64,000 nucleotides of DNA from the NCBI GenBank assembly GCA_963728205.1, contig CAVSIV010000002.1:480001-544000 (forward strand), read 5' to 3'. Every line of letters begins with the position of its first letter. Position 1 is the first letter of the stretch. This document shows, piece after piece, positions 18,569 through 49,900 of this stretch. The notes under the pieces are model-generated. The model had not been told where the DNA came from. It saw nothing but the letters and a program-made list of their open reading frames with translations, and did not search any database. The stretch comes from an uncultured Chloroflexia bacterium. GTDB taxonomy: Bacteria > Chloroflexota > Dehalococcoidia > UBA2979. The position numbers were made by a program, and so were the translations under genes.

Positions 18569-18770
18569 CGGTGGCCCTCCCTTCGACCGCAGCGATGGTG
18601 ATGGTAGGGGCGGAGCCGCGCGGACAGTCGTGCCGAACTCCTCACCGCCCTCGCCCGAGTCCACAAGACCGCGATATAAGCCCGTCATCCGGGGCAGTCG
18701 CTCCGTTAGATCAATGCAACACTTGCATCGGGGGCCGTTGACGATCCTGCAATCATTTCAGGGGACCACG

Positions 18771-19619
18771 ATGCGAAATCGCAAGATCAGCCGCCGCCAG
18801 GCATTGCGGCTCGCCGGCGGCTCGGCGCTCGCGGCGCTGCTGTTTCCGACCGCCAACGCCGTTGCCGCGCAACTGTCCGGGTCATCGACGTCGACGGCCG
18901 GCACATCGTTTGCGCCAGCGATGCAGGTGAACCTCGACCAGGACACGGTGTTCGCGACGGCCACGGGCGGCGCGCGCGCCGAGGCGCCGTACCACGCCCT
19001 CGACACCGACTTCGGCGCGGCCGGCGTCCAGGGTCAGCGGTGGTTCGACGCCGCGAAGCGCGCCGGCTACGATGGCCTGATCACGACGCTGCACACGTAC
19101 TGGGGCGGCAACCCGGTCGCCTGGGGGTCGGCGCCGCTGGTGCTCGAACGCGCGCTCGCCGCCGGCCTGTGGATCGGCGCCTACGGGCGGCCCGCCGCGT
19201 ACTGGCGCGAGGCGCTCGCGCCGCTGCCGACGGAGCTGCGTGAGCGGCTCAAGTTCTACGCGCTCGACATCGAGGTCGAGCCCGGCAACACCCAGTTCCC
19301 GATGCAGCGTGCCTACGCGGACGGCGTCGCCGACGAGTTCGGCGTGCGGCCGGTCGTCTACACCGGGTGGGGCATGTGGGGGGACGTGATGGGCTACGGC
19401 TCCGGCGGGTTCGCCGACCTGCCGTTGTGGGACTTCTCCGGGGATCGCGCCGACTGGCCGGCAGCGCTCAGCGACGACGCGCTCGTGCCCTTCGCCGGCT
19501 GGAACACCGCCGACAATCTGCGCACGGGCTGGCAGGTGCAGATGCAGACGCCCGCGACCCTCAACGGCGTCACGATCGACCGCGACCTCTTCTCGCGCGC
19601 CTTTATCGACGCCGTCTAG
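18771..19619 (+). CDS. Tat-secreted GH25 (muramidase-like) glycoside hydrolase
   Basis: ISRRQALR Tat motif; GLWIGAY, ALDIE (DxE), PVVYT, LPLW, GWQ, IDRD match the GH25 pattern. Confidence 0.7.
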   Translation: MRNRKISRRQALRLAGGSALAALLFPTANAVAAQLSGSSTSTAGTSFAPAMQVNLDQDTVFATATGGARAEAPYHALDTDFGAAGVQGQRWFDAAKRAGYDGLITTLHTYWGGNPVAWGSAPLVLERALAAGLWIGAYGRPAAYWREALAPLPTELRERLKFYALDIEVEPGNTQFPMQRAYADGVADEFGVRPVVYTGWGMWGDVMGYGSGGFADLPLWDFSGDRADWPAALSDDALVPFAGWNTADNLRTGWQVQMQTPATLNGVTIDRDLFSRAFIDAV

Positions 19620-19638
19620 CCGCCGCCTCCGTCGCGGG

Positions 19639-21477
19639 CTACTCGACCGTCACCGTCTTCGCGAGGTTCCGCGGCTGATCGACGTCGGCGCCGCGGATCG
19701 CGGCAACGTGGTACGAGAGCAGCTGCAGCGGCACGGCCGCCACGATCGGGACGAGGAACGGGTCGACCTCCGGTATCTCGAGGACGTCGTTCGCGAGCGT
19801 GTCGCAGGAGTGGTCGCTCTGCGTCACCAGCGCGAGCACCCGGCCGCGCCGCGAGCGGACCTGCTCGATGTTCGACAGCATCTTGTCGCGGAGGCCGTCT
19901 CGCGGGGCGAGCGCGACCGTGGCGATACGCTCGTCGATCAGCGCGATCGGGCCGTGCTTCATCTCCGCTGCTCCGTACCCCTCCGCGTGGACGTAGGCGA
20001 TCTCCTTGAGCTTCAGCGCGCCTTCGAGCGCCAGCGGATAGCCGAGGCCCCGGCCGAGGACGAAACAGTCCTCGTACTGGGCGTACCGCTGCGCGACGCG
20101 CTCGACTTCCGCGGCCGATTCCAGCGCAGCCTGGACGCGCCCGGGCATCGCCAGGGCCTCGCGCACCTGGCGCTCTTCGAGCGCCGGGTCGAGGGTTCCG
20201 CGCAGCCTCCCGAGGGTGAGCGCGAGCCCGTGCAGCATTAGCAGGGACGCCAGGAACGTCTTCGTCGACGCAACGGCCACCTCCGGGCCGGCGCGCAACA
20301 GGATCGTGCCGTCGGCGATCCGGGTCGTCTGTGCGCCGGGGGTATTGCAGAGCGTGATCTGCGGCGCGCCGCGGCGGCGTGCCTCGTCCATCGCCGCGAG
20401 TGTGTCGACCGTCTCGCCGGACTGCGTCACGGAGATGACGAGCGTGTCCCGCCCCAGGAGGGGCGCGCGATAGCGGAACTCGGCGGCGTTGTCGACCTCC
20501 GCCGGCAGCCGCGCGAAGCGCTCGATGTAGTGGCGGCCGATCATCGCCGCGTGCATCGACGTGCCCATCCCGATCAGGACGACGCGACGCAGTGAGCGCA
20601 CGCGGGCCGCGTCGAGCGGCAGGTCGTCGAACGTCGTGCGCGCGGGTGACGCGTGGTACCGCCCGCGCAGCGCGTCGGCGAGCGCCGCGGGCTGCTCGAA
20701 TATCTCCTTGAGCATGAAGTGGCGATACGGCCCGCGCGCCGCCGCCACGGGATCGTACGGGAGCACCTGGACGGACTTCTCGAGCGCCCACCCGGCGGCG
20801 TCGACGTACGTCACGGCGTCCGGGCGGACGTCCGCGACCTCGCCCGGCTCCAGGAACACGACCCGCCGCGCAACCGGAAGCACCGCGCCGACGTCAGAGG
20901 CGACGACGTGCTCGTGGTTGCCGCAGCCAATCACGATGCCGCCCGCGTTGCCCGCGCGGGCGGCGACCAGCCGCCCGGGTTGGTCGCGCGCGACTGCAAC
21001 CACCGAGAAGGCGCCCTCCGTGAGCGCGACCGTGTCCCGCATCGCGTCCAACAGGTCCTGCCCGCGCTCGAGGCACGCGGCCAGCATGTGCGCGAGGACC
21101 TCCGTGTCGGTGTCGGAAGCGAAGTCGCCCCGTGCAAACTGCGCACGCAGCGCGTCGTGATTCTCGACCACGCCGTTGTGCACGACGGCGACGAGGCCGT
21201 CGGGGTCGAGGTGCGGGTGCGCGTTTCGATCGCTCGGCTCCCCATGGGTCGCCCAGCGCGTGTGTCCGATGCCGCTATGACTGTCCGGCAGCGCACCTTC
21301 GAGGCGCTGCACGAGCGTGTCGAGCTTCCCCGCCGACCGCGCGACGTAGAAGTCCCCGTCGGCGCCCGCGAGCGCCAGCCCCGCCGAGTCGTAGCCGCGA
21401 TATTCGACGCGTCGCAACCCATCGAGGATGACCGCCCCCGCTGCCTGGTAGCCGGTGTAGCCGACGATGCCGCACAT
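19639..21477 (-). CDS. glmS: Glutamine--fructose-6-phosphate aminotransferase
   Basis: MCGIVGY, EYRGYDSAG, GIGHTRWATHG, SQ/TQSGETVDT, ALKLKE, DQPRNLAKTVTVE. Confidence 0.98.
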   Translation of the reverse strand: MCGIVGYTGYQAAGAVILDGLRRVEYRGYDSAGLALAGADGDFYVARSAGKLDTLVQRLEGALPDSHSGIGHTRWATHGEPSDRNAHPHLDPDGLVAVVHNGVVENHDALRAQFARGDFASDTDTEVLAHMLAACLERGQDLLDAMRDTVALTEGAFSVVAVARDQPGRLVAARAGNAGGIVIGCGNHEHVVASDVGAVLPVARRVVFLEPGEVADVRPDAVTYVDAAGWALEKSVQVLPYDPVAAARGPYRHFMLKEIFEQPAALADALRGRYHASPARTTFDDLPLDAARVRSLRRVVLIGMGTSMHAAMIGRHYIERFARLPAEVDNAAEFRYRAPLLGRDTLVISVTQSGETVDTLAAMDEARRRGAPQITLCNTPGAQTTRIADGTILLRAGPEVAVASTKTFLASLLMLHGLALTLGRLRGTLDPALEERQVREALAMPGRVQAALESAAEVERVAQRYAQYEDCFVLGRGLGYPLALEGALKLKEIAYVHAEGYGAAEMKHGPIALIDERIATVALAPRDGLRDKMLSNIEQVRSRRGRVLALVTQSDHSCDTLANDVLEIPEVDPFLVPIVAAVPLQLLSYHVAAIRGADVDQPRNLAKTVTVE

Positions 21478-21536
21478 GGAGCGGACCCTTCTGTCGCATC
21501 GAGAACGCACGTTCCTGACTGACTCCCCGTGGGGGG

Positions 21537-21728
21537 TTACGTGGAGGGCCACTTCCACAGTTCGAGCCACATACGCACGCGCCAATCGCGCACCCAGCGG
21601 TACCACCACGGCACCGCCGGGTGAGGTTCGGCGGGGATGTTTGCTCGACCGCTCGCGGCCAGTCCAGGACTGCGGCTTCGTTGCTCCCATCCTTGTGGGG
21701 CCTGACGACGCGTCATATGCTGCTGCAC
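21537..21728 (-). CDS. Putative 63-aa Trp/Arg-rich micropeptide
   Basis: GTG 9 nt after AAGGA; VQQHMTRRQAPQGWEQRSRSPGLAASGRANIPAEPHPAVPWWYRWVRDWRVRMWLELWKWPST*. Confidence 0.5.
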   Translation of the reverse strand: MQQHMTRRQAPQGWEQRSRSPGLAASGRANIPAEPHPAVPWWYRWVRDWRVRMWLELWKWPST

Positions 21729-21736
21729 GGTGCTTG

Positions 21737-21800
21737 TTCCTTGTCGTAAGGGGGCGATCACCGACGGGACGGCTGGTGCTCGAACACCAGCCGTCCTCCT
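21737..21800 (-). promoter_or_regulatory. Structured leader motif, copy A (candidate cis-regulatory RNA or operator)
   Basis: Minus strand AGGAGGACG-GCT-GGTGTTCGAGCACC...GCCCCCTTACGAC-AAGGA; 12-bp stem 21767-21796; repeated at 26598-26691. Confidence 0.6.
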
Positions 21801-23014
21801 CACCTCCGAATGCTGGACTGCTGGGTGTCGACGGATGGCGGACGCTGCGGCTGGCCGGCAGCGTCCGCTTCGTCGAGCAAGCGATGCGCCGCGTCGACCA
21901 ATGCTGCGTTTCCGCCGGCTTCGATATGCGGCAGTTGATCGCGCACGAGCGCGTCGATGCGCGCGACGTCCGCGCCGACGTTCTCTCCGTCGACCCGCTC
22001 GGCGAGCCGGGCGAAGGTCAGCGCGTCTTGCATGTGCAACACGAGGCTCCACGGCGCCCCGACGTACGTCCGCGCCGCGCGCGGCGAGAGGTAGAGCTCG
22101 CGCAGGGCGCGGTAGCGGGCGAGCGCCGACGTCTTGCCGTCGGTCACCCGCAGCATGTCGGCGACCAGGCCGGTCTTGAGCGCCGGCGTGTCCGCGTCGC
22201 GGCGGGGGTCGACGGCGGAGAGGGCGAGAAAGACGCGCAGGGACGGTTCGTAGCCGTTCGCGCGGCGCACGCGCGGGACGGCGCGGTCCGCGATCGTCGA
22301 TCCGTGCACGGCCGACACGCCCGACGTGTAGCGCGCGTAGGCCTCGTCGTTGGAGGTCACGTCCGGCATCGCGTAGATGCTGCGCATCACGATGGCTGCG
22401 AGCGTCACGTTCTGCCGCGGCTCCCAGATGCTCGTGGAGGCCTGGAACCCCGCGACATGGTAGGGACTGTGCGCGTCCGCCGCCCAGGCGGACGCGGTTC
22501 GCTCCGAGGCGAACGAGACCTGGCCGAGCCCGCGGTCGCCCGGCTCGGGGCCCTGCGCGAGCGGGTCGAGGGCCGACTCCGACGCCAGCGCCTGGAAGAG
22601 GAAGAGCGGCCCGATGCCGACGCGATCGGCGGCGTCGAACACGAGCGGCCGGATTGCGAGGAAGCGGCCAAACTCCACCTCGTTCCACGGACCGAGCGCT
22701 TCCGCCTGTGCGAGAAGCGCCGGACCGTCGGTCCGCGCCCACGCCTCGAGCATCGCGCCGCTCTCGACCGATACGTGGATCGGCAGGTCTCGCGCGCTCG
22801 TCACCGCCGGTCTCTCGGCCGGGCGCGCCACGAAGGGTGCCGCCGGGACGCGCAGGCCCAGCGACGTCGAACCCGGCACGCGGTCGAGGGGGCGCGCCGA
22901 GACCGCGAACCCCGTGTTGACGTGGAGCAGGGCGATGGCGATCACCGAGAGGATCAGCACGCCGGACAGCGTGCTCGCCACGCGGGACGTCGCGGAGGGC
23001 TCGAAGGCGTTCAC
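21800..23014 (-). CDS. Membrane-anchored or secreted SLT-like lytic transglycosylase domain protein
   Basis: N-terminal hydrophobic helix; ASESALDP (ES), DRGLGQV, IWEPRQNV.LAA, AYARYTSG; GTGA overlap with GT2 stop. Confidence 0.72.
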   Translation of the reverse strand: MNAFEPSATSRVASTLSGVLILSVIAIALLHVNTGFAVSARPLDRVPGSTSLGLRVPAAPFVARPAERPAVTSARDLPIHVSVESGAMLEAWARTDGPALLAQAEALGPWNEVEFGRFLAIRPLVFDAADRVGIGPLFLFQALASESALDPLAQGPEPGDRGLGQVSFASERTASAWAADAHSPYHVAGFQASTSIWEPRQNVTLAAIVMRSIYAMPDVTSNDEAYARYTSGVSAVHGSTIADRAVPRVRRANGYEPSLRVFLALSAVDPRRDADTPALKTGLVADMLRVTDGKTSALARYRALRELYLSPRAARTYVGAPWSLVLHMQDALTFARLAERVDGENVGADVARIDALVRDQLPHIEAGGNAALVDAAHRLLDEADAAGQPQRPPSVDTQQSSIRR

Positions 23015-24237
23015 GCGGCATCCGCCCGCAGCGGGCCGCCGGCGCGGGCGCGTTCCGGCGGTTCGTGCGCGGCGGCGGGGACGACCCGGCGCCGCGCGGG
23101 GCTCTCCCACGCAGAGGAGAGGTGCTCACCGTCGCCGCCGGAGGGCCGCCGCGGGAACGCATGGTGCAGCACGCTGGCGAGCGCGCGAACGCTGTTCGCG
23201 AACTCGAGGAGCATGAGCGCGACCACGAACGGCGCCAGCACCACCATCGCGAAGCGCCCCGTGGCGATCGCTCCGATGAGCACGACCGCCAGCAGGAACG
23301 CGAGCTGGATCGCCAGGTGCAGCGCCAGCGCGTCGCGGCCGCCCGGATAGGCGAACTGCGGCGGCTCGTGCGGCAGAACGAGCAGCACCGGTATCGCGAA
23401 GAGACGCAGGAAGAAGGTCGCCATCAAGACGATCACGACCGCGTTGACGATGTCGAGGCCGCTGGGGCGCAGCCGTCCCACGGGGTCGCGACGCAGCCAG
23501 CACAGGCCCACGCGGTCGATCCGCACGACCTCCCACCATGCCCGGTTCCACCGGTACGTCTGACGCACGAACGCCCGCAGGCCGCGGGGGTCCTGCGTCC
23601 ACACCACCGCGCCCGCGACGTATCTGATCCGTCCCAGGCGCTGGCGATGCGTGGCGATCGAGAGGTGAAAGTCCTCGGTCGAGAGGCGATGGTCGAACCG
23701 GATCTGGCGGAGCGCGCTGACCCGCCACGTGCTGGCGCAGCCCGGCGCGATCGCGACGGCATCGAAGACGCTCTGGAGTCGCTTGAACAATGCCTGCCAG
23801 AAGAAGTAGAGGCACGCACGGTAGATCGAGACGAGGTTGGCCCCGTCGGGGCGTGACTTCACCTGGCCCGCCGCGCACGCCACGCGGTCGTCCGCGAGCG
23901 CGGCGAGCGCGCGTTCGCGGTACCGCGGCTCCATCGTCGTGTCCGCGTCCAGGATCGTGACGAACTCGTAGCCGGACGGGTACACGTCGCGCGTCAGCGC
24001 GTACTCGAGCCCGCGCGACTTGCCGACGTTTGCGGCGTGCCGGATGACGTTGCGTGCCGGCAGATACCGCTCGGCGATGTCCGCCGTGCCGTCGTCGCTG
24101 GCGTCGTCGAAGAGGAAGACGTCGTCCGGCGCGTACGCCTCGAGCACCGACTCGAGCGTCGCCGCGATCGTGAGGCGCTCGTTGTGCGCCGCAACCAGGA
24201 CGGCGGCTCGCCCGGCGGCGACCGCCTCGGTGCTCAC
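23011..24237 (-). CDS. Processive membrane GT2 glycan synthase (PgaC/hyaluronan/chitin-synthase-like)
   Basis: AHNE, DDASDD, GKSRGL, LDADT, PGC, STED, QTYRW (QxxRW), C-terminal TM helices. Confidence 0.9.
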   Translation of the reverse strand: MSTEAVAAGRAAVLVAAHNERLTIAATLESVLEAYAPDDVFLFDDASDDGTADIAERYLPARNVIRHAANVGKSRGLEYALTRDVYPSGYEFVTILDADTTMEPRYRERALAALADDRVACAAGQVKSRPDGANLVSIYRACLYFFWQALFKRLQSVFDAVAIAPGCASTWRVSALRQIRFDHRLSTEDFHLSIATHRQRLGRIRYVAGAVVWTQDPRGLRAFVRQTYRWNRAWWEVVRIDRVGLCWLRRDPVGRLRPSGLDIVNAVVIVLMATFFLRLFAIPVLLVLPHEPPQFAYPGGRDALALHLAIQLAFLLAVVLIGAIATGRFAMVVLAPFVVALMLLEFANSVRALASVLHHAFPRRPSGGDGEHLSSAWESPARRRVVPAAAHEPPERARAGGPLRADAA

Positions 24238-25217
24238 GCCGGTCCCCCGACGAGCTCGCGCGTCGCGCGGCGCGCCAGCCGCCGCGCGATGTCGTCGATC
24301 GTGTACCCCAGGCCCTCCTCGAGGGGCACGGTCGGCCGCCAGCCAAGCTCCTGCTCTGCACGCGTCGTGTCGGGAAGCCGAGCGTCGTGGTCGTGCGCGG
24401 CCCGGGGCACCTCGACAATCTCGCTGCGCGAGCCGGTCAAGGCGACGATCGTCTCGGCCAGGACACGCACGGTCTCGGACTCGTGCGACCCGAGGTTGTA
24501 CGCCCTGCCCGCCGCTCCGTCGCGGAGCACGCGTCGCAGACCATCGACCAGGTCGTCGACATACGTGTGGCAGCGCCGCTGCTCGCCGCGTCCGTGTACC
24601 CGCACCGGCGTCCCGCACAGCGCCGCGCGCACGAACGCGGGCACTACGCGCGTCTCGCGGAGCGACATCCCCGGCCCGTACGTGTTGAAGATGCGAGCGA
24701 CCTTCGCCGCTACGCCGTAGCGCTCCGCGTAGATGCCGCACAGCGTCTCCGCGACGCGCTTGCCCTCCTCGTAGCCGTTGCGCGGTCCCAGCGTGTCGAC
24801 GTTCCCGGTGTACGTCTCGGGCTGCGGCGACACGGTCGGGTTGCCGTAGACCTCGGCCGTCGAGGCCAGCACGACGCGCGCCCCGCAGGCGCGTGCGACA
24901 TCGAGGACCGCGCGCGTCCCGTCGAAGCTTGTCTCCAGCATCTCCAGGGCGAGCGGCCCGAGGTTGGGCACGCCCGTCGGACAGGCAAGGTGGTAGATCT
25001 CCTCGGCACCCGCGCGTCGAGCGATGTCGCGAAAGGCGTCGCTCGTCACGTCCAGCTCGTGGAAGTCGAAGCCCGGCTCCCGCAGCAGGGGAACGAGATC
25101 ATCGCGGTCGCTGGTGATGAAGTTGTCGAAGCCGACGACGGCGTGTCCCTCCGCGATGAGGCCGGCCACCACGTGACGGCCGATGAAGCCCGCGGCACCG
25201 GTGACGATGGCGGTCAT
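24234..25217 (-). CDS. UDP-glucuronate decarboxylase (UXS)-like SDR
   Basis: TGAAGFIG, DNF, IYHLACP, STAEVYG, GNV..LGPR..YEEGKR.AE, RIFNTYGP, YVDDLV.GL. Confidence 0.88.
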   Translation of the reverse strand: MTAIVTGAAGFIGRHVVAGLIAEGHAVVGFDNFITSDRDDLVPLLREPGFDFHELDVTSDAFRDIARRAGAEEIYHLACPTGVPNLGPLALEMLETSFDGTRAVLDVARACGARVVLASTAEVYGNPTVSPQPETYTGNVDTLGPRNGYEEGKRVAETLCGIYAERYGVAAKVARIFNTYGPGMSLRETRVVPAFVRAALCGTPVRVHGRGEQRRCHTYVDDLVDGLRRVLRDGAAGRAYNLGSHESETVRVLAETIVALTGSRSEIVEVPRAAHDHDARLPDTTRAEQELGWRPTVPLEEGLGYTIDDIARRLARRATRELVGGPA

Positions 25218-26590
25218 CGTCGGCCCTTCCCGCCCGCGGCCGACCGCGGCGCCGATGCCGGCCCGCCCGTCGCGCCGTCGGTCAGCCGGAGCGTTCGCCA
25301 GCCGCGCGACGCCATCGCCTCCGCGTCGAAGGCACGATGGTCGACGAGCATCACCGCCAGGTCGTACGCCGCCGGATCGGCCGACGCGAGGTTCACGGAG
25401 GATCGCCCCGCGAACTCCGAGACGTAGGGGTCGTGGAAATCGACACGCGCCCCGGCCTGCTCCAGGAGCCCCATGATCGCGAGGGCCGGTGAGCGGCGCG
25501 TATCTCCGATCTCCGGCTTGTACGTCACGCCGAGCAGCAGCACCCGCGCACCCTCGAGGCCCCCCTCGAGCCGCTCGGCGATCCGCTGCACGACCACGCT
25601 CGCTCGCGACTCATGGTTCGCCATCGCCGCCGCAAGCACCGGCGCGGCGACGTCGCCCTCGCGCATCGAGTCGTGGAGGAAGTAGGGGTCCTCCGCGATG
25701 CAGTGGCCGCCGACGCCGGCGCCGGCAAAGAAGGGCATGAAGCCGAACGGCTTGGTCGCGGCCAGCCGGGTGACCTCGTGCGAGTTGAGGTTGCGCGCGT
25801 GGCAGTACTCGTCGAACTCCTGCGCGAAGGCGATGTTCACGAAGCGGAACGTGTTTTCGAGGAGCTTCGTCGCCTCCGCCGCCTCCATGCTCGAGGCGGG
25901 CACCACGTCGTCCACGATCTCTCGGTAGAAGCGCAGCGTGAGAGCCGCCGCGCGATCGTCCGCGCCGCTGGTGACCTTCGGGATCTGCTCGAGCTCGAAG
26001 CGCTGGTTGCCGGGGTCGATACGCTCCGGCGAGTAGCCCACCGCGACCTCGCTCGCGGACCCGCGCGGGGCGAGAATCGGCATCACCACGTTCCGGGTCG
26101 TGCCGGGTGCGTACGTGCTCTCGCTCACGATCAGCCGCGGACGGTCGTCCGTCGCGATCTGCGAAGCAACGACCTCCGCCGCGGCCGTGACCAGGGAGAG
26201 ATCGGAGCGACGCGAGCCATCTTCGACGCGCGTCGGCGTGGGAACCGCAATCAGGATGACGTCGCAGCCCCCGAGCACGGCCGCATCCGCGGTGGCGTCG
26301 TACGGCTTGCCCGCCGCGTTCTGCGCGACGCACCGCCGCACCGCTACGGGGTCAATGTCGACACCGAACGTACGGAACCCGACGGTGGCCGCGCGCTGAG
26401 CGAGACCGAACCCCACGTATCCCTGCCCGACGACGCCGACAGTCGCGGTGTGAGAGGCAATGGCGCATTCCAGCGGGTCGGCGGGGTCCGGCCGGAGCGG
26501 CGGCCGCAGACGATCCGGTTCGGAGAGGCGCGCGCGCAGTCGAAGGGGCCCGCGCCCCGGCCGTGACGGGACGACAACTTCTCGTGGCAC
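25214..26590 (-). CDS. UDP-N-acetylhexosamine dehydrogenase (WecC/WbpO/TviB type)
   Basis: GQGYVG, AVPTP, SPERIDPGN, KLLENTFR.VNIA, TKPFGFMPF, GGHCI..DP, YKP...DTR.SP. Confidence 0.92.
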   Translation of the reverse strand: MPREVVVPSRPGRGPLRLRARLSEPDRLRPPLRPDPADPLECAIASHTATVGVVGQGYVGFGLAQRAATVGFRTFGVDIDPVAVRRCVAQNAAGKPYDATADAAVLGGCDVILIAVPTPTRVEDGSRRSDLSLVTAAAEVVASQIATDDRPRLIVSESTYAPGTTRNVVMPILAPRGSASEVAVGYSPERIDPGNQRFELEQIPKVTSGADDRAAALTLRFYREIVDDVVPASSMEAAEATKLLENTFRFVNIAFAQEFDEYCHARNLNSHEVTRLAATKPFGFMPFFAGAGVGGHCIAEDPYFLHDSMREGDVAAPVLAAAMANHESRASVVVQRIAERLEGGLEGARVLLLGVTYKPEIGDTRRSPALAIMGLLEQAGARVDFHDPYVSEFAGRSSVNLASADPAAYDLAVMLVDHRAFDAEAMASRGWRTLRLTDGATGGPASAPRSAAGGKGRR

Positions 26591-26597
26591 TGTAAAT

Positions 26598-26691
26598 TTC
26601 CTTCGTCGTAAGGGGGCTGATTGCCGGCGGCAGGTGCTCGAACACCCGTTTGGGCCGCGCGGTCGCTTGCTCTACTCGATAACGTCCTCCT
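26598..26691 (-). promoter_or_regulatory. Structured leader motif, copy B, ahead of the first gene of the glycan operon
   Basis: AGGAGGACG...GGTGTTCGAGCACC...GCCCCCTTACGAC-G-AAGGA, 8 nt before GTG 26590. Confidence 0.6.
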
Positions 26692-27103
26692 GTGGCACGT
26701 GATCGGCGCGTGAAGTCGCCTGATTCGCGCACATCAAGCGTGGCCGGTTGACCCCGCGCTCAAATGGTATGGATTCATCATTCCTCCCCGGGGCTCACCA
26801 ACGGATCACATATGACAGCGACGAGTATCCGTTCGCTCTCATTTTCGACGTATGCAAAATTGTTCTATCCGAAGGCTCGGGGGATCTTCGAGCCACGCGC
26901 CTCGCGAGGTCCGGATGAGACGCGAGCAGCCCATTCGCTGGCGACGCTGGACGGGCCGGGGTTGTGACCGGGGCGAGCACACGACACATCCGGTGCTCGC
27001 CGTCGGTCGCGCCGCGTGCCGATGAGTCGAGGGCGCGCCGCAACCGGGCGCCGCACCTATCATCCCCGCGGCGAGACGCACCACGGAGACGAACGGGGAA
27101 CGC

Positions 27104-27904
27104 ATGGCCGTGCTCGAGACCACGCAGGACGGACACGTCCGCATCATCCGGCTCAATCGGCCGGAGAAGAAGAACGCGCTCTCCCAGGAGCTCGCGTGGG
27201 GCATCATCCACGCCGTCGAGGACGCCGCCGCGGACGACGACGCCTGGGTCGTCGCGATCACCGGCACCGACGACGCCTTCTGCTCCGGCCTCGACCTCTC
27301 GCCGGAGGACGACGGTCGCGACCACACCGGCCTCACCCCGCAGGCTGCCTACCTCGACGACCTGAGCTGGGTCAGCCGCTTCCCGCTCGTCTTGCGCGAG
27401 CGCTGCGACAAGCCGGTCGTCGCCGGCCTCAACGGCGTCGCGGTCGGCGCCGGGCTGTCGCTCGCGATGGCCTCCGACATCCGCCTCATGGCGCAGAGCG
27501 CGCGCCTGATCGCCGGCTACCCGCGCATCGGCGGCTCGCCCGACGGCGGCCTGTCGTGGACGCTGCCGCAGACGATGGGCTACGAGCAGGCGATGCGCTT
27601 CCTCCTCGAGAACCGCACGGTCGGCGCCGACGAGGCGCTGCGGCTCGGCATGGTCGGCGAGGTCGTGCCGGACGATCGCTTCGCGACGCGCTTCGCCGAG
27701 TACTGCGCGTCGCTCACGCACCTCTCGCCGATCACGGCGCGACTGACGAAGCGCGTGGTGCGCCACGCGACGGCGCTTGCCGACCCCGAGGGCCACATGC
27801 GCTACGAGCTGCTCAACATCGGCAGGGCGTTCGGAAGCGACGACGGGAAAGAGGCGCGCCGCGCGTTCCTCGAGCGGCGCGAGCCGCGCTTCGAGGGTCG
27901 CTGA
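27104..27904 (+). CDS. Enoyl-CoA hydratase/isomerase
   Basis: LNRPEKKNAL, AFCSGLDL, KPVVAGLNGVAVGAGLSLAMASDIR, PDGG. Confidence 0.95.
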   Translation: MAVLETTQDGHVRIIRLNRPEKKNALSQELAWGIIHAVEDAAADDDAWVVAITGTDDAFCSGLDLSPEDDGRDHTGLTPQAAYLDDLSWVSRFPLVLRERCDKPVVAGLNGVAVGAGLSLAMASDIRLMAQSARLIAGYPRIGGSPDGGLSWTLPQTMGYEQAMRFLLENRTVGADEALRLGMVGEVVPDDRFATRFAEYCASLTHLSPITARLTKRVVRHATALADPEGHMRYELLNIGRAFGSDDGKEARRAFLERREPRFEGR

Positions 27905-41448: not shown

Positions 41449-42231
41449 ATGCAACCCACGGACAATCTCCTGCTCCGTGCGCTGCCCGATGCGGAGCGAG
41501 AGCGACTCATCGCTCTCAGCTCCACCATCGAGTTCGCGCTCGGCGATGTCCTGTACGAGCAGGACCAGGAGATCGAGACCGTCCACTTCCTCACGTCGGG
41601 CTGCGCGTCGGTCCTGATCGCCATGGAGGACGGGCGCGCGCTCGAGCCGGCCGTCGTCGGTCGCGAGGGCGTGCTCGGCTTCCCGCTCGCGCTCGGAGAC
41701 AACCGGTCGCGCTGGCGATGCGTCATCGAACTCCCGGGCGAGGCGTATGTCATCCCCCGCCGGCGGCTGGCCGGCCTGCTCCGCGAATCAGGGGATCTCG
41801 GTCCGCTCCTCATGCACTACGCCAGCCTCCTCATCACCTTCGTTGCGCAATCCGCGGCCTGCACGCAGTTCCATCCGGTGGAGCAGCGCGCCGCGCGCTG
41901 GCTCCTCCTGCTGCACGAGCGCGCCGGGGTGGACCAGTTCCCGATCACGCACGAGTGGCTCGCCTACATGCTCGGCATCCAGCGCCCGTCGGTCTCCGTT
42001 GCCCTCGAGAGCCTCGCCCGCACGGGCGCCATCCGGCAGCGGCGCGGATTGGTCGAGGTGCTCGATCGCGCTCGGCTCCAGGAGCTGGCCTGCGAGTGCT
42101 ACGAGCGCGTGCAGGCCCCGTTCCGGGAGATCGTGACGGTGATGCGCCGCGGGTCGGAGGGCGGCGTGTACCAGCCCGGCGGACCCGGGGCCGAACAAGC
42201 AGGACTGGCGGAGCGTCGGGACCGGCCGTGA
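41449..42231 (+). CDS. Crp/Fnr family transcriptional regulator
   Basis: NLLL.ALP, VVGREG, AQSAAC..FH.VEQR.ARWLL, ITHE.LA.MLG..RPSVS (HTH). Confidence 0.93.
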
Positions 42232-42442
42232 CCGCCGGCTCGGAACCCGACCGCTCGATGCGCGCACCGAGCGCGGCCGCAATTTCGTCATGCGATATGG
42301 CGGATTATCAATTCTTAGCACTATGGTGTTGAGCAGCGGTGGAGGGCCGCCGGCCGAATACCCCGCCCGCACCGGCGTGCCCTCCACCCTCTTCCTGCCT
42401 GTCTGCCGTCGCGCCGACGAGCGTCGACCCGGAGGAACCGCC

Positions 42443-43549
42443 GTGACGAACGAGAATACGAACCTGCCTCCCATCAAGGTGATCGGCGTCGGCGGCGGCG
42501 GCTGCAATGCGGTGAGTCGCATGGTCCGGGAGCGCCTTTCCGGGGTCGAGTACGTGGCCGTGAACACCGACCTGCAGGCGCTGACGCGAAGCGAGGCCGA
42601 CGTCAGGGTGCAGATCGGCGACCGCGTCACGCGCGGACTCGGTGCCGGAGCGGATCCGGCGCGGGGGGGTCAGGCCGCCGAGGAGTCGGTCACGCTGCTC
42701 GAGGCGGCAATCGCGGGCGCGGGGATGGTGTTCGTTGCCACCGGCCTCGGGGGCGGGACCGGCACCGGGGCCGCGCCCGTCGTCGCGCGCATCGCGCGCG
42801 CGGCAGGCGCCCTCACCATCGGCGTGGCGACGAGGCCGTTCGCCTTCGAGGGCGCGAAGCGGCGCCTTCAGGCGGAGCAGGGCGCGCAGGCGCTGCGCGA
42901 GCAGGTCGACACGCTGATCCTGATTCCCAACGATCGCCTGCTCGAGATCGGCGACGTCGAAGCCTCGGTCGTGAAGGGATTCGAACGCGCCGACGCCGTG
43001 CTCCGCGACGGCATCCAGGGCATCAGCGAACTGATCACGCAGCCCGGGATGGTGAACCTGGACTTCGCCGACGTGCGCAAGGTGATGTCCGACGCCGGGC
43101 CGGCCGTGATGGCCGTGGGGAGCGCGCGCGGCGCCGATCGCGCCGTCGAGGCCGCCCGCCAGGCGGCGGCGAGCCCGCTCGTCGAGGCGAGCATCGCCGG
43201 CGCGTCGCGGGTGCTCTTCAACATCACCGCGTCGGCCGACCTGAGACTGCGCGAGGTCGAGGCGGCCGCGCGCGTGATCGCCGAGACGGTCGATCCCGAC
43301 GCCGAGATCGTCTTCGGGACGTGCGTCGACCGCGCGGCCGGCGACGAACTGCGCCTGACGTTGATCGCCACCGGGCTGCGCTCCGCCGCGGGGCAGCTCG
43401 CCGCGGCCACTGGGGAGGCGCTCCCGGCGCCGGCCGAACGCCGGCCGGGACCCACGCGCAGCGCGCTGCCCCCGATCCCGGCGCTCGACGACGCCGGCGG
43501 CCTCGAGCTTCCGAGCTTCCTCCGACGGCGCGCGTCACGAGGCGCGTGA
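42443..43549 (+). CDS. ftsZ: Cell division protein FtsZ
   Basis: [48 protein letters not shown]-terminal [10 protein letters not shown]; GGAGG RBS. Confidence 0.97.
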
Positions 43550-43780: not shown

Positions 43781-43856
43781 GCCGAGGTAGCTCAGTTGGT
43801 AGAGCACGCGACTGAAAATCGCGGTGTCCCCGGTTCAAATCCGGGCCTCGGCACCA
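43781..43856 (+). tRNA. tRNA-Phe (GAA)
   Basis: GCCGAGG/CCTCGGC acceptor stem, D-arm, CGCGA-CTGAAAA-TCGCG anticodon arm, GGTTCAAATCC T-arm, encoded CCA. Confidence 0.98.
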
Positions 43857-43910: not shown

Positions 43911-46900
43911 TCAGTGACGTCCGCCCGACCCGCCTGCGGCCCCGGGCCCGGCGTCTTCTGAGTGCTTCGGCCCGCCGTCGCCTGGCTCGCCGTCGCCCGT
44001 CCCGGCCGTGCCGGCGTCGCGTCCATGCTCCTTCGCCGCGGGATCCGTCAGCTCGATGGCAACGCTGTACGACCGGCCGTCGTCGAGCGACACCTCAATC
44101 GCCGCCGTCCCCGCCGGGATGCCCGTCGTGTCGATGACGTACGAGTACTGTCCGCCACGCTCGTCGTGCGTCGCGCCCCGACCGTGTCCCCGGCCCGGGT
44201 CCGGCGCCGGCCCATTGCCGTCAACATGGCCGCTGTTCCGGAGCCGCGCGGGCGCGCCGTTGACCGTGACCGTCACCGCGGCCCCGTCCACGGCGTGGTG
44301 CCGCGCGTCGAAGAGCCGGAACTTCAGCGGCACCGCCTGCCCGACCTCGAAGTGCGCTTGCTTTCCCAGCGGCGGCTCGAATCCGCCCCAGCCGTAGGTC
44401 ACGCTGTACGCGACCGTCACCTGGTTCGTGTTCCCGGCCACGTCGCTCGCCGTCACGGTGTACGTGTACTGGCCCACGCCGGTCGCGGTCGGCGGCGCGG
44501 AGAGCACGCCGTCGCAGGCGCCGGCCAGGCCGGACGCGTCCGCACCCGGGTCCGCCGCCTCGCAGGCGGGGTCGGCCCCGCCGACGACGTACGAGCCGCC
44601 GGCGTCGACGCCCGAGATCGTGATTTGCGGCGCCGCCTGGTCGACCCTGAACGCAAGCTGCCGCACCGGCTCCACGTTCCCGGCGGCGTCCACCGAGAAG
44701 TACGCCACGCTATAGACGCCGTCGGGGAACGTCACCGGGCCGCTGTACGGCTGCTCGTCGCCGCCGTTCACCCGGTACGCCGTCCGCGCCACGCCCGACG
44801 CCGCGTCGGTCGCCGTCAGCGTCAGCACGACGGGCGAGCCCGCGATGTACCAGCCGTCGTTGCCGGTCGTGCCGGCCAGCGACGCCGTCGTCGCCGGCGC
44901 TTTCTGGTCGATCTCGACGTCGACCGACTGCGCGGCCTCGATGTTGCCGGCCAGGTCGCTGGACCGGAACTGCACCGAGTGCGAGCCGTCGGCGGTCAGC
45001 GCGATGGGCGCGTCGTAGGGCTGCCATCCCGCGCCGTCGACGTTGACCTCGGTCGAGGCGACGCCGGAGAGCGCGTCGGCGGCGCCGAGCGATACCGAGA
45101 CCGGACCGGTGTACCAGCCGCCGTCGCCGACCGGGCCGTCTACGGTCGCGGTCGTGACCGGGGCCGTGAGGTCGACGCGGATGCCGTCGAGCGTCGCGGA
45201 GGCCACGTTGCCCGCCTCGTCCGCGCAGCTCACGGTCGCCGACTGTGCGTCGCCCTCGTCGCTCAGCGTGACCGTCGTGCAGCTCGCCGCGTCGATGCCC
45301 GAGAGGGCGTCGGTGCCGGCGCCGGTGACGGTCACCGGCGCGCGGTTCCACCCCGCCGCGTTGGGCGCGGGCGACTGCGCCGCCGTCACGTCCGGCGGCG
45401 TGCGGTCGACGTTGATGTCGCCCGCCGTCGCCGTGGCGACGTTGCCCGCCTGGTCGGTCGCCGTGCCGGTCACCGACTGGCCCGCGCCCTCGGCGCCGAC
45501 GGTCGCGTCGCCGTCGCAGCTCGCCACGCCGGACGCGTCATCGCTGCACGTGAACGTGACCGACACGTCGTCGACGTTCCAGCCGTTCGCGTTCGCGTCC
45601 GGCGTGCGTGTCGACGTGATGGTCGGCGGCGACTGGTCGACCTTCACCTCCAGCGTTTGCGCGTCCTCCACGTTCCCGGCCTCATCCATCGAGAAGAACG
45701 TGAGGTTGTGCACGCCGTCGGTGAGCGTCAGCGGGCCCGCGTAGTCTGCCGGCGACCCGCCGTCGACGGTGACGGTCGTGGACGCCACCCCCGAGCGGTC
45801 GTCCGCCGCGCTCAGCGTCACCACCACCGGATCGCCCGCCATGTACCAGCCGTCGCGGCCGGCGGTGCCGCTGACCGAGGCGGTCGTGATGGGAGGCGTG
45901 CCATCGGGGACCGTCATCGCGAAGGCGGTGCCGGTGAGCGACGTGATGCTCGGTGTGCTGGTCGCGTCGAGCGTGACCGTGAAGCGGCCGCCCGACGTCG
46001 TGCCGTCGAGGTTGTCCGCCGTGTCCATCACCGGCGCGGCGCCGCCGCTGCCGAGGACGGGCTGCCAGGCGGCGCCGTCGAAGTACCAGAGCTCGAGCAG
46101 CCCCTCCCGGGCCGGCGTCACGCTCGACGGGTAGTACATCCGCACCGTCGCGGAGTCGCCGGGGTCCGCGCCGGTCACGCGCAAGTCGACATAACCACCA
46201 TCGACCCCGAAGGCGACGCCGCCGATCGGGTTGTGGCTGTAGGTCGCGACCGCGGCCCAGACGTCGCTCGCGGCCACCCCGCCGGGCGCGGGCGCGCCCG
46301 TGTCGGTGACGCCGGCGGCGATACCGGCGCCATCGGGGCCTGACGGCATGAGCGAGACGGTGGTCGTCCCGGCGAGCGCGCCCGGCGCGCCGGTCACGGC
46401 CTCCACGGCCGGCCCGACGACGAAGACGGGAACCGCGTCCGACGCGTTGAGGAGGAGGCCGCGCGCGGACTGGCCGAGCCTGACGTCAACGTGCCGGTAG
46501 TGCCCGCCCGCCGACGCCACGAGGTCGGCAGGCACGGTCGCCTGGACGTGCGAGGCGTCGATCGCCGTGGCGTCCAGCAGCGTGCCGTCCCAGCTCACCC
46601 CGAGTGGCCCCTGCGCCGGGTCCGTGAAGTCGGCCAGCACGTCGCCGGTCAGCGTCAGCGTGAGGTCGCCGCTGCCGGCCGCGATGCGCGACGGGCTCGC
46701 CTCGACAATCGCGTACGGGCCGACCGCGCGCGTCGTGAGCGAAACGACCGCCGTGTCGTTGGATGCATCGGCGTCGACCACGGACTCATCCGGCGTGAGC
46801 GAGGCCGTGGCTTCGAACGAGGCCTCGCCCGCGCGCGTACAGGCGACCGTGAAGTCGAGCGGGACGCTTGTCGTCTCACCCGCGTCCAGGGTGATCGGTT

Positions 46901-49900
46901 CCGCCTCCGGCGCGCCGACCACCGCGCAGGCGCCCGAGACGTCCAGCGTCGCGCCGACCATGAAGCCGGCGCCGTCCGCGGGGCCGGCGTTCGTGACGTC
47001 GGCGGTGACGGTGACGGTGCTGTTCCCCACGGTCGACGGCGCGGCTCCGCTCGTGACCGCAACCGTCGCGCTCACCTGGCCGTCGGCCGGCAGCACGAAG
47101 GGCATCATGACGAAGTCCTGCTGCGTGTTGTTCGCGAGGTCGGGATCGGGCACGTCCGGCGTCTCGCCGCCGGCCGGCTGCACGTCGGCCGAGACGTCAA
47201 TCTCGTGGGCGCCGCCCCCATCGCAATGCACCTGGAACGTCGCCGTCACGGGCGCGGAGTCGCCGGAGTTCAGCGTGAGGTCCAGCGTCTTCGGGTTCTC
47301 GTCGCTGATGGTGCACCCGGTTCCGACGGCCGGCGTCGCCAAGAGCGTCGCGACGTAGTCGGCTGGACCGTACGGCCCGTGGCTCACGACCGTCGCGTCG
47401 ACCGTGAGCGTGGCGTCCGAGCCGGCCGCGGTCGGGTCTGCCGGCGGCACCAGGGTGAGATCCATGAGCTCGGCGTCGGCCCCCGCGAATGTGATCGTCG
47501 CGCTCGCCGAGGCCTCGTCGTTCGCATGGTTCTCGTCCGGCTGCGCGACGGCGTCGACCGGCGCGACCCCGGCCGCCACCGAGACGTCGTATTCCCCCGG
47601 CGCGTCGCACGCGATCGCGAACTCCCCGTGCACGGGTGCGGACGCGCCGGCGGCAAGCTCGTCGACCGCGATCGTCTGCGTCGCGTCGCCCGACACGGCG
47701 CAGCCGTCTGGAGAGCGCCGGCGTGAGCGTCACCGCGAAGTCGGCGAGGTCGAGCGGCCCGTGGTTCGTCACGGCCGCGTCGACGGTGAGCGTCGCGCTG
47801 CCCGCCGGTGCGCCGAGCACCGGATCCGCCGGTGGCGTGAGCGTGAGGTCGCTCAGCTCGGCGTCGGCCATGTTCGGGTTGGGCGCAATCCGGAAGTCGA
47901 GCGCGAACCCGCCGCCCGCCGCGCCGTCGTAGTCGCCGTCGAGCGCGGCACCGTGGCTGTCGGTCACCCCGGCGCACGCGATCAGCCGGTATGCCGCGTC
48001 GTCCGGCAGCCGCACGCCGCCGTTCGCCCGCAGGCTCACGGTCGCCGCGGCGGCGTCGAACTGCAGGGCGTCGAGCGGGATGGCGAGGTCGTCGCCGGCG
48101 GGTGCGTCGCAGGCGGCGGTCTGCGCCACGCCGTCTGGTCCGTCGTCCACGAGCGCGTAGTTGGCCGGGTCGCTGGCGGTCGTGGCCATCCACTCGCTGA
48201 AGCGCAGCGTGAACTGCGTCAGGAGCTGGTCGCCCGGATAGAGCGAGCCGTCGAAGAGCGCGCCGTCGGGCGCGGCCTCGGTGGTGACGGCGTCGAGCAC
48301 CGTCGGCGGGCCGCTCTCCACGGCGAAGTCGCGGTGGAAGTCGGCACCGCCGGCGATCCCGTTGCCGAAGCCGTCGAGGCGGTGCCCGACCAGGTCCTTG
48401 ATGGCCGGGAGGTCCGGCTGCGTGCCATCCCCATCGCTGGCGCACACGACCAGCCGATAGGTGCCGTCGCGCAGCCCCTCGCCGCCGTTGACCGCGAGCA
48501 GGGCGGTGTGACCGGCGGCGTCATACGCCACCGAGTCGACGGGAATCCCGGCGGGGATGCTCGCGGCATCGGACCGGCAGTCCACATACGGGAGGACGCC
48601 GTCGGGGCCGGCCGCGTAGAGCCGGTAGAGGCCGGGGTTCGTCACGTCGTACGGGTCGGTGTCGCCTGCGGGGTCGGCCACCGGCTCGGAGAAATGGACG
48701 CCCAGCGTCGCGGGTCCGGTGGCAGTCGTCGCGCCCTCGGCCAGGACCCCGCCGCCGCCCCCGGCACCGACGGCGGTTACGGACCGGACCTTCGGCGCCG
48801 TGTCGTCGACCACGATGAAGTCCCGCGTGAAGTCGTCGCCCTGCTGGCCGTCGCCGTTGCCGTCGAGCACGTTGCCCGCGGGATCGGCGACGGACGCGTG
48901 GCCGCTGCAGACGACGAGGCGGTAGGCGCCCTGCGGGAGCGCATCGCCGAGCACCGAGTAGCCGGGGAACTCGACGTTCGCGCCCGCGGCGGCGCCGCCG
49001 ACGCTGGAGTTGAAGACGTGGACGAGCGAGGCGCGGATCGCCGCGTCGTCGCCCTGGACGGGACCGCAGCCGGGCGTCTCGAACGTACCGTCCGCGCCCG
49101 GGGTGAGCAGCTCGTAATTCGCGGGGTTGCTGATGTCGCCCGCCCCGTCGTCGCCCGCGGGGTTCTGCACGGACTTGCTGAACCCGACCACCGCGTGCAC
49201 CGGGTGCTTCGAGTCGGGGACCGTCGCGCCCGGGTCCATGACGTCGACCGACGGGCCGACGCCCTGGATCGCGGCGCCGACGACGCTCGGCGCGGTGTTC
49301 AGCGTCTGGAAGCCGCGCGAGACGTCTCCGCCCGGCAGGCCGTCGCGGTCGCCGTCCAGGGGGTGGCCGGCGAGGTCGATCAGGGCCACGCCGGCGGCAT
49401 CGCCGCTGCAGACCAGGAGCCGGTAGCCGCCCGCCGGGAGCGGCCAGCCGCCGTTGAGGTGCAGCGTCGCCGTGGTCGTCGCGGCGTCGTAGGTCACCGC
49501 GTCGATCGGCACGGCGCTGTCGCCCGCCGCCAGCGGGCCGCATTCGGCCTCCTGCGGAACGTCCGACGACCCTGAGCCGACCACGAGATAGTGCGCGGGA
49601 TTCGTCACGTCCTGCGCATCGGTGTCGCCGTAGCGGTCGAGCATCGGCTCGCTGAACGTGACGTCCAGGGTGGAGGCCGCCCCGATGTACGGGTCGGCGG
49701 GGAAGCCGCTGATCGTGGACGACGCCACGTACGGCGCGACGACGTCTCCGCCGCTGCCGAAGTCGAGCGCGAAGGCGTCACCCGCGGTGCCGTCACCGTC
49801 GCCGTCGAGCGGGTTCCCGGCGGCGTCCTGTGCAGCGCACACGAGGAGCCGGTACACGCCGCTCGGCAGCTGCGCGCCGCCGTTGAGGGCCAGGGTCGCG

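Follow-up and report, generated by a model that had tools for sequence, protein, structure and literature searches.

A short repeat at two translation starts of a putative polysaccharide island in an uncultured Dehalococcoidia bacterium

The region under study, referred to below as the window, is a stretch of 64,000 nucleotides (nt) from an uncultured Chloroflexia bacterium that GTDB places in the Dehalococcoidia (assembly GCA_963728205.1, contig CAVSIV010000002.1, positions 480,001 to 544,000). Its minus strand carries a cluster of glycan-related genes in which one short element occurs twice, as copy A ahead of a micro-protein gene that is followed by a second glmS gene (glmS2), and as copy B ahead of the first gene of a four-gene operon. 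We tentatively interpret this element as a duplicated mRNA leader and translation-initiation cassette, which would co-set translation at both of these entry points; judging from the sequence, we favour this reading and would stop just short of calling it probable. The element belongs to a known type, the cis-acting leader at translation starts, of which it is an orphan example; it is not demonstrably a new class.

The repeat and its layout

Local alignment of the two intergenic regions gave a score of 53, against a mean of 22.5 (standard deviation 2.7, maximum 33) for 300 dinucleotide shuffles, and picked a single similar stretch, 21788-21737 versus 26646-26598, in which 44 of the 54 aligned columns are identical. 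This repeat, of 52 nt in copy A and 49 nt in copy B, is far beyond chance. The similarity between the copies ends at the Shine-Dalgarno (SD) sequence, and the flanks of the repeat are not similar beyond shuffles (scores of 11 versus 11.8±1.5 downstream and 13 versus 14.0±2.1 upstream). In the whole 4.1-Mb assembly a two-copy nhmmer profile finds just these two sites, the next match having an E-value of 1.2, and exact matches to the near-palindrome and to block 3 occur only there; searches of the genome with looser block patterns for further copies returned nothing coherent. The features of the two copies, with the evidence for each in brackets, are:

21737..21788, minus strand: copy A, repeat core from palindrome to SD, 52 nt (local alignment; nhmmer E 1.9e-17)
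26598..26646, minus strand: copy B, repeat core, 49 nt (local alignment; nhmmer E 4e-16)
21775-21788 (copy A) and 26633-26646 (copy B), minus strand: near-palindrome GGTGTTCGAGCACC (sequence)
21743..21755, minus strand: block 3 GCCCCCTTACGAC, copy A (sequence)
26605..26617, minus strand: block 3 GCCCCCTTACGAC, copy B (sequence)
21726..21742, minus strand: SD AAGGA at 21738-21742, 9-nt A-rich spacer and GTG at 21726-21728, the micro-protein start (sequence)
26588..26603, minus strand: SD AAGGA at 26599-26603, 8-nt A/T-rich spacer and GTG at 26588-26590, the dehydrogenase start (sequence)
21792..21800, minus strand: block 1 AGGAGGACG, copy A, overlapping the TGA of the SLT-like gene (sequence)
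26683..26691, minus strand: block 1 AGGAGGACG, copy B, 36 nt 5' of the palindrome (sequence)
21767..21796, minus strand: predicted hairpin P1 of copy A, 13 pairs and a 4-nt loop (RNA fold)
26631..26648, minus strand: predicted hairpin P1 of copy B, the same apical 14 nt (26633-26646) plus 2 pairs (RNA fold, sequence)

Copy A is located between the stop codon of the SLT-like gene and the micro-protein start, and copy B in a 513-nt divergent intergenic region, immediately 5' of the first operon gene. An earlier note on this DNA had described three blocks shared by the two sites in a fixed order, each set followed by AAGGA and, 8-9 nt on, by a GTG, with a spacing to the third block of 19 nt at one site and 15 nt at the other; read on the minus strand, which is the coding strand, all of this is correct, coordinates included. 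As a grouping the three blocks stand only in part. The palindrome and block 3 belong to the one significant repeat, whereas block 1 is at chance level: it is a common SD-like 9-mer with 125 occurrences in the genome, and any shared 9-mer was found between two 60-nt flanks in 562 of 20000 shuffled pairs (2.8%) and in 6139 of 100000 random genomic pairs (6.1%), so that its sharing is compatible with chance. In copy A the 3' part of block 1 falls in the lower stem of hairpin P1.

The near-palindrome, GGTGTT-CG-AGCACC, is symmetric at 12 of its 14 positions around a central CG and is identical in both copies, and three indels distinguish the linkers that follow it (19 nt in copy A versus 15 nt in copy B up to block 3), with the 14-nt apex, the 13-nt block and the SD unchanged. 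TTACGAC and the GTG are 14 nt apart in both copies even though an indel intervenes: copy B has one more G ahead of AAGGA and compensates for it with a shorter spacer.

Translation starts and the micro-protein family

The genes downstream of the two copies, with the basis of each assignment, are:

25214..26590, minus strand: nucleotide-sugar dehydrogenase, similar to UDP-N-acetylglucosamine (UDP-GlcNAc)/N-acetylmannosamine (ManNAc) dehydrogenases, 458 amino acids (aa) (Pfam, NCBIfam; source names of homologs)
24234..25217, minus strand: NAD-dependent epimerase/dehydratase, 327 aa, its start overlapping the dehydrogenase stop (ATGA) (Pfam, NCBIfam)
23011..24237, minus strand: GT2 processive-synthase-like glycosyltransferase (PgaC/NodC-like), 408 aa, GTGA overlap (Pfam, NCBIfam)
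21800..23014, minus strand: membrane-anchored SLT-like (lytic transglycosylase) protein of a rare family, 404 aa, GTGA overlap (homologs)
21537..21728, minus strand: micro-protein gene, 63 aa (homolog family; core PWWYRWVRDWRVRMW)
19639..21477, minus strand: glmS2, second glutamine-fructose-6-phosphate transaminase, 612 aa, 59 nt after the micro-protein stop (Pfam, NCBIfam)

Since genes 1 to 4 are joined by the overlaps ATGA, GTGA and GTGA, the two GTG starts are the sole free-standing points of ribosome entry in the operon before glmS2. In its frame GTG 26590 comes first after a stop, and there is no other in-frame start. The 49 codons before the Rossmann fold of the dehydrogenase have a poor coding signal. 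An N-terminal extension of this kind is seen in all 32 proteins of the dehydrogenase family examined, the window's own included, with 18-65 residues before the GxGYVG motif; the figure is 54 for the window protein and 37-65 among its seven closest relatives. Some dehydrogenase relatives are named as Dehalococcoidia metagenome-assembled genomes (MAGs) by their source. The nearest relatives also have in common a helix of the form L..AI..H.A.VGVVGQGYVG. At the other site, an N-terminal QRS/T element is common to the window micro-protein and three relatives, which places the start upstream, at GTG 21728 with its AAGGA SD or at ATG 21716, which lacks one. It is thus credible, on this comparison of protein sequences, that both copies of the element end at real translation starts, GTG 26590 and GTG 21728, and the earlier placing of a repeated element over two ribosome-binding sites, one at the operon head and one at the micro-open reading frame (micro-ORF)/glmS unit, is upheld.

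By composition alone the micro-ORF looks non-coding, with a G+C content at third codon positions (GC3) of 0.69. A phmmer search nevertheless recovered two small proteins with its C-terminal core and a profile search four more, and six-frame searches uncovered two further copies in the genome, making three paralogs: the window gene at 21537-21728 and copies at C6:776167-776361 and C1:405749-405895, all on the minus strand. Across the taxonomic family, the same type of search detected these micro-proteins in 15 of 99 genomes, which represent 6 of the 21 genera. The family is typified by a core, PWWYRxV(R/K)xWRxRMW, with nine invariant columns in an 11-row alignment, and the differences among five copies are distributed over codon positions 1, 2 and 3 as 48, 30 and 72, with synonymous changes at invariant residues. 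AlphaFold predicts a Trp/Arg-rich helix at residues 41-58 (predicted local distance difference test, pLDDT, 86-92). No Pfam or NCBIfam model matches the micro-protein, and we found no relevant publication for its core strings. By these sequence criteria the micro-ORF, which the earlier note had only listed as such, belongs to a Trp/Arg-rich micro-protein family that is undescribed and confined to this lineage of Chloroflexota, and its homologs and coding-type substitution pattern mark it as a real conserved gene. The paralogs occur in different genomic contexts, and three copies from this family (L047, L054 and L061) precede ORFs for small hydrophobic membrane proteins.

Predicted RNA structure

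In copy A the shared near-palindrome forms the apical 14 nt of hairpin P1, which begins 4 nt past the TGA stop of the preceding gene, leaves 24 nt up to the SD and has no U-tract; a 96-nt segment of this copy folds at -41.2 kcal/mol (z -3.19). Past the palindrome the stem is extended by eight more pairs in copy A and by two (C-G and G-U) in copy B, and here the sequences differ with pairing kept, as had been noticed earlier. Two of the pairs, one at the imperfect palindrome position and the other among the two additional pairs of copy B, are G-U and can form only in the coding-strand RNA. Pairing of CCTT with AAGG over the SD, likewise proposed earlier, is predicted in both copies: the CCUU of block 3, which contains a C5U2 tract resembling an anti-SD, forms a four-pair stem with the AAGG of the SD, at -2.4 kcal/mol in copy A (unpaired probability of the SD core 0.01-0.18) and -2.9 kcal/mol in copy B (0.00-0.12). 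When the two copies are folded together, RNAalifold keeps the invariant apical hairpin and a three-pair spacer helix, one pair of which has a one-sided change. A long-range helix over the start codon, of 5 bp in copy A and 4 bp in copy B, was rejected; its 3' strands are offset by 4 nt, and it therefore does not count as covariation.

A scan of the whole window against Rfam 15 at the gathering threshold matched only a tRNA, and the two regions searched at E-values up to 10 gave only scattered matches of 12-17.5 bits, far under the thresholds. The earlier note had seen no fit to the glmS ribozyme core, and this holds: no family matched, the glmS ribozyme (RF00234) included. The element is like the glmS ribozyme in being a predicted structured RNA upstream of a glmS gene. 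It is unlike it in giving no match at E up to 10 and in lying 250 nt from glmS2 with the micro-protein gene between them, and its other copy precedes a dehydrogenase gene. SD-masking leaders and RNA thermometers of the fourU and ROSE types offer another parallel, in that the pyrimidine tract of the element is predicted to pair with the SD beside the start codon. The element nevertheless departs from these types in matching no Rfam family and in combining a stem of only four pairs with an extra conserved apical hairpin, a conserved C-run and a conserved loop.

Signals of other kinds were sought at the two sites. No sigma-70-like site was found at either copy, there is no TANNNT hexamer in the 570 nt upstream of the micro-ORF, and in intergenic region B the sole such hexamer on the operon strand is TACCAT at 26769-26764, 118 nt upstream of the palindrome. 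No layout of the extracytoplasmic function (ECF) promoter type (GGAAC/TTAACC-N-CGTT) fits at the element, and a terminator scan of the sites found nothing. Three further candidates were discarded. AGGAGG-N7-GTG opens a 9-codon ORF within the palindrome of copy A, and a leader peptide was rejected because copy B has no SD before the corresponding GTG; ribosomal -1 frameshifting out of the SLT-like gene into the frame of the micro-ORF has no slippery heptamer 5' of the hairpin to rely on; and the repeats do not behave as cassette att sites, the island limits by composition being at about 18.7 and 27.1 kb and not at the repeats, with no integrase among the island genes.

Interpretation as a possible leader and initiation cassette

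In the reading that we favour, the cassette would span about 50-65 nt and consist, from 5' to 3', of a GC-rich hairpin whose 14-nt apex is fixed, a short linker that varies and the C5U2 tract, followed by the SD AAGGA, an A-rich spacer and the GTG, with the anti-SD-like C5U2 tract pairing weakly with the SD. Copy B would set the output of the four enzyme genes, since genes 2-4 are chained to gene 1 and whatever acts on the cassette there sets all four, and copy A would in parallel set that of the micro-protein, with a possible effect on glmS2 through the micro-protein. We infer that the cassette acts in RNA rather than in DNA, and that the two copies share one factor or condition to which they respond. 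The hairpin of copy A lies 4 nt past a stop codon and within at most 35 nt of the SD, leaving no room for a promoter and a 5' untranslated region, and must therefore be transcribed with the micro-ORF message. The unequal spacing of the blocks (19 versus 15 nt) argues against a promoter, and an RNA linker would tolerate it. The presence of this hairpin in the message, the lack of promoter hexamers, the unequal spacing, the G-U pairs confined to the coding strand and the CCUU/AAGG pairing all favour action in RNA.

Several results weigh against this interpretation. RNAalifold finds no compensatory pair and no covariation between the two copies. Outside the long stem of copy A the folding z-scores are ordinary at -0.78, -0.39 and -0.09, the last two being for the whole segment of copy B, and the mini-hairpin over the SD is weak at the energies given above. 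The initiation regions are predicted to be among the most open, at 0.58 and 0.44 versus a median of 0.36 for the 48 called genes of the window; such openness is as compatible with a strong constitutive start as with a switch. A protective hairpin joined to a strong start may be all that the cassette is. Nor is the arrangement of exact blocks around a variable spacer remarkable: when the 7 differences were placed at random, 17362 of 100000 trials had two clean runs of the same length or longer. Such clustering is not significant, and selection on the blocks is therefore not demonstrated. The alternating switch of the earlier note, in which an upstream AGGAGG would pair with the C-tract, found no support: the AGGAGG block is at chance level and at site A is taken up in the lower stem of the 13-bp hairpin. 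Together with the want of compensatory pairs and the weak SD hairpins, this leaves the regulated translational switch put forward there without backing.

The comparative searches weigh in the same direction, beginning with the fact that the element is found as only two copies in one assembly. A 91-nt query from site A had no match in 60 relatives. A degenerate two-block pattern run on metagenome contigs picked up 14 loci, which we judge to be chance matches, none of which extends into CGAC-AAGGA; the best two of the 14 (L007 and L012) fall within the final codons of a hydrolase-like ORF. Orthologous dehydrogenase-epimerase-GT2 operons, with 54-57% identity, are present in 2 of 400 genomes (L064/G066 and L065/G141, from another family of the class), and in both of these readable operons the leader is unrelated to the element. 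Conservation in homologous loci, on which the earlier note had made its proposal depend, was thus absent from 2 of 2 orthologous operons examined. The element is also not present at the micro-protein paralogs or at the housekeeping glmS genes of the genus. As a separate observation, the L064 and L065 operons have a long AT-rich leader that is conserved between the two genomes.

A more specific version of the cassette would be a locus-specific riboregulator, in which the fixed apex and the C-tract read one signal that gates both ribosome entry sites of an island for a polymer of GlcNAc and its uronic acid form (GlcNAcA), co-switching glmS2 supply and four-gene polymer synthesis. The signal could be an amino-sugar nucleotide that the pathway makes, some RNA-binding protein or, through feedback, the Trp/Arg-rich micro-protein. 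We regard this version as very unlikely. If the cassette is regulatory in any form, it would afford compact post-transcriptional control of a whole polysaccharide island, with one reusable leader per remaining entry point. The firmer gain is in annotation, namely a real micro-protein gene and an island with its own glmS paralog; for an orphan element with two copies in an uncultured organism the wider importance is limited.

Alternative explanations

Instead of a shared control, the repeat could be the relic of a duplication, in which a leader and ribosome-binding site were copied when the micro-protein/glmS2 unit joined the four-gene cassette, or the reverse. Both sites would then be ordinary ribosome-binding sites under no common regulation, and the hairpin of copy A a plain intercistronic stem-loop. 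The identity of 44 of 54 columns, the placement of the 7 differences no more unevenly than random and the predicted openness of the initiation regions are all in keeping with this, as are the absence of the element from everywhere else searched, the foreign composition of the island, and the finding that in three same-genus genomes the island query matched glmS only (both detailed below). The unit of copying would, however, be oddly short, ending exactly at start codons with unrelated DNA on both sides, and the 14-nt distance to the GTG is preserved across an indel; furthermore, three indels have accumulated in the linker with the apex, the 13-nt block and the SD untouched, which is suggestive and not significant. 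Stabilising intercistronic stem-loops are known from the repetitive extragenic palindromic (REP) sequences of malEFG and from the puf hairpins. Copy A is reminiscent of these in having a 13-bp GC-rich hairpin just past a stop codon, without a U-tract; in contrast to them, its apex recurs in an operon 5' region with no upstream cistron, and there are two copies rather than a multi-copy repeat family. On balance we consider a mere relic rather unlikely.

The symmetry of the repeat raises a further alternative at the DNA level. LacI-type operators are palindromes of 14-16 bp with a central CG, and the near-palindrome could be bound by a dimeric transcription factor of the LacI/GalR, GntR or TetR type, which would repress the operon promoter at copy B and at copy A would either form a roadblock or act at an internal promoter, with the remaining similarity reflecting the shared ribosome-binding region. 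The 12 of 14 symmetric positions, the central CG and the identity of the motif in the two copies fit such an operator, as does the location of the copies, each preceding one of the two expression units; LacI/GalR operators and cre roadblocks, too, are placed between cistrons or between a promoter and its gene. The RNA reading, for its part, is without covariation support. Several features nonetheless set the element apart from LacI/GalR operators. A Pfam scan of the genes from 8.3 to 43.5 kb finds no DNA-binding domain, and no regulator that could be cognate, in or beside the island, the nearest helix-turn-helix (HTH) protein being Crp-like and 15 kb off. With at most one mismatch the palindrome has 22 matches in the genome, on both strands and with the two sites included; the one other near-match checked, C2:178482, lies inside coding sequence, so no further site is confirmed, and a host regulator would have a single target. 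Promoter-like hexamers are missing near either copy, the conserved stretch continues into the SD, and the stem extensions flanking the palindrome differ in sequence but pair, once via G-U. We therefore hold a DNA operator to be unlikely.

Finally, the leaders might be targets of the CsrA encoded by this genome, which would bind the GGA motifs (AGGAGGA and AAGGA) of both and block ribosome binding. A CsrA gene scoring above the cut-off (PF02599, 66.8 bits) is present at C6:1480893-1481042, where it immediately follows a FliW-like gene. Polysaccharide operons are well-known targets of CsrA, and the leader of hag in Bacillus subtilis is under CsrA control. GGA occurs three times in each leader of the island, once within the SD, and AGGAGGA and AAGGA are present in both. 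CsrA sites contain GGA (PMC7652899), and CsrA represses the pgaABCD polysaccharide operon of E. coli (PMC8151843), with which our locus shares the leader of a GT2 polysaccharide-synthase operon carrying several GGA motifs, the SD included, and a genome encoding CsrA and FliW. A role for CsrA here is highly improbable, as no GGA of the element is in a hairpin loop (that of the SD is in a stem and the upstream one of copy A in the lower stem of P1), neither of the two best-conserved blocks (palindrome apex and C-tract) is a CsrA feature or a GGA site, the upstream GGA block is at chance level, and three of the four flagellin leaders of the same genome show what is expected instead, a 3- to 5-bp stem with an AGGAU, AGGAC or AGGGAU loop ahead of a GAAGGAGG SD.

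The glycan island and other features

The glycan cluster (18738-26590) has a GC3 of 0.90-0.92 versus 0.96-0.98 in the flanking genes, and an 8.4-kb island query in three same-genus genomes matched nothing but glmS. The lower GC3 and the absence from genus genomes suggest, at the level of composition and gene content, that the cluster is a horizontally acquired island. The same lowered GC3 is seen in a gene for a protein of unknown family with a twin-arginine translocation (TAT)-signal-like sequence (18738-19619, plus strand). At the other end, in the divergent region between the dehydrogenase gene and an enoyl-CoA hydratase gene (27104-27904, plus strand), the G+C content falls to 54-57% at 26700-26950. 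The genome lacks WhiB. We found no publication that brings together Dehalococcoidia, exopolysaccharide, glmS and UDP-GlcNAc dehydrogenase.

The SLT-like protein has six relatives with 45-49% identity, and PF01464 is detected in 2 of the 6. One of the six contigs behind these relatives, 18,226 nt long, carries in addition the closest relative of the dehydrogenase (P0009, alongside P0002). It was found in 1 of 401 genomes of the class and 1 of 401 of the phylum, each time the source genome itself; searches recovered no relatives in 371 metagenome stretches, in 56 viral contigs (0/56) or in plasmids. Its search of genome contigs gave one weak partial match, in a Steroidobacteraceae MAG.

The housekeeping glmS is located at C2:560049-561887, 60 kb away, with 64% amino acid identity to the island glmS2 and a short plain leader; it follows an upstream ORF after a short intergenic region, an arrangement that is the same in three genus relatives. 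Within the island, a predicted pairing joins the 3'-terminal codons of the micro-ORF to the glmS2 SD and start (21465-21575, minus strand; p 0.72-0.89) and would couple translation of the two. Masking of the glmS2 start by the micro-ORF 3' end was dismissed as a distinct feature, the duplex energy being ordinary and matched by 82 of 1000 shuffles and 9 of 46 other windows.

A third copy of the element was considered at C6:1405143, where a block 3 with one mismatch lies upstream of a FliF-like gene; it has no palindrome and was judged to be chance. The surrounding segment (C6:1405120-1405170, plus strand), about 110 nt 5' of that gene, shows ATC, C-run, TACGAC and GGAAC elements, with one mismatch in the 13-mer. 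Four flagellin genes lie at C6:1386935-1398700, and three of their leaders are preceded by CTTAAGG/CTAAGG and GCCGATGA boxes resembling sigma-28 promoters. A row of FlgL-like, FliW-like and CsrA genes (C6:1479377-1481042) is 90 kb from these flagellin genes. Elsewhere in the window, the gene for the Crp-like HTH protein adjoins an FtsZ-family gene (41623-43549), and a tRNA gene (43781-43853) is followed by two very long minus-strand ORFs of 1261 and 2387 aa (43911-54360).

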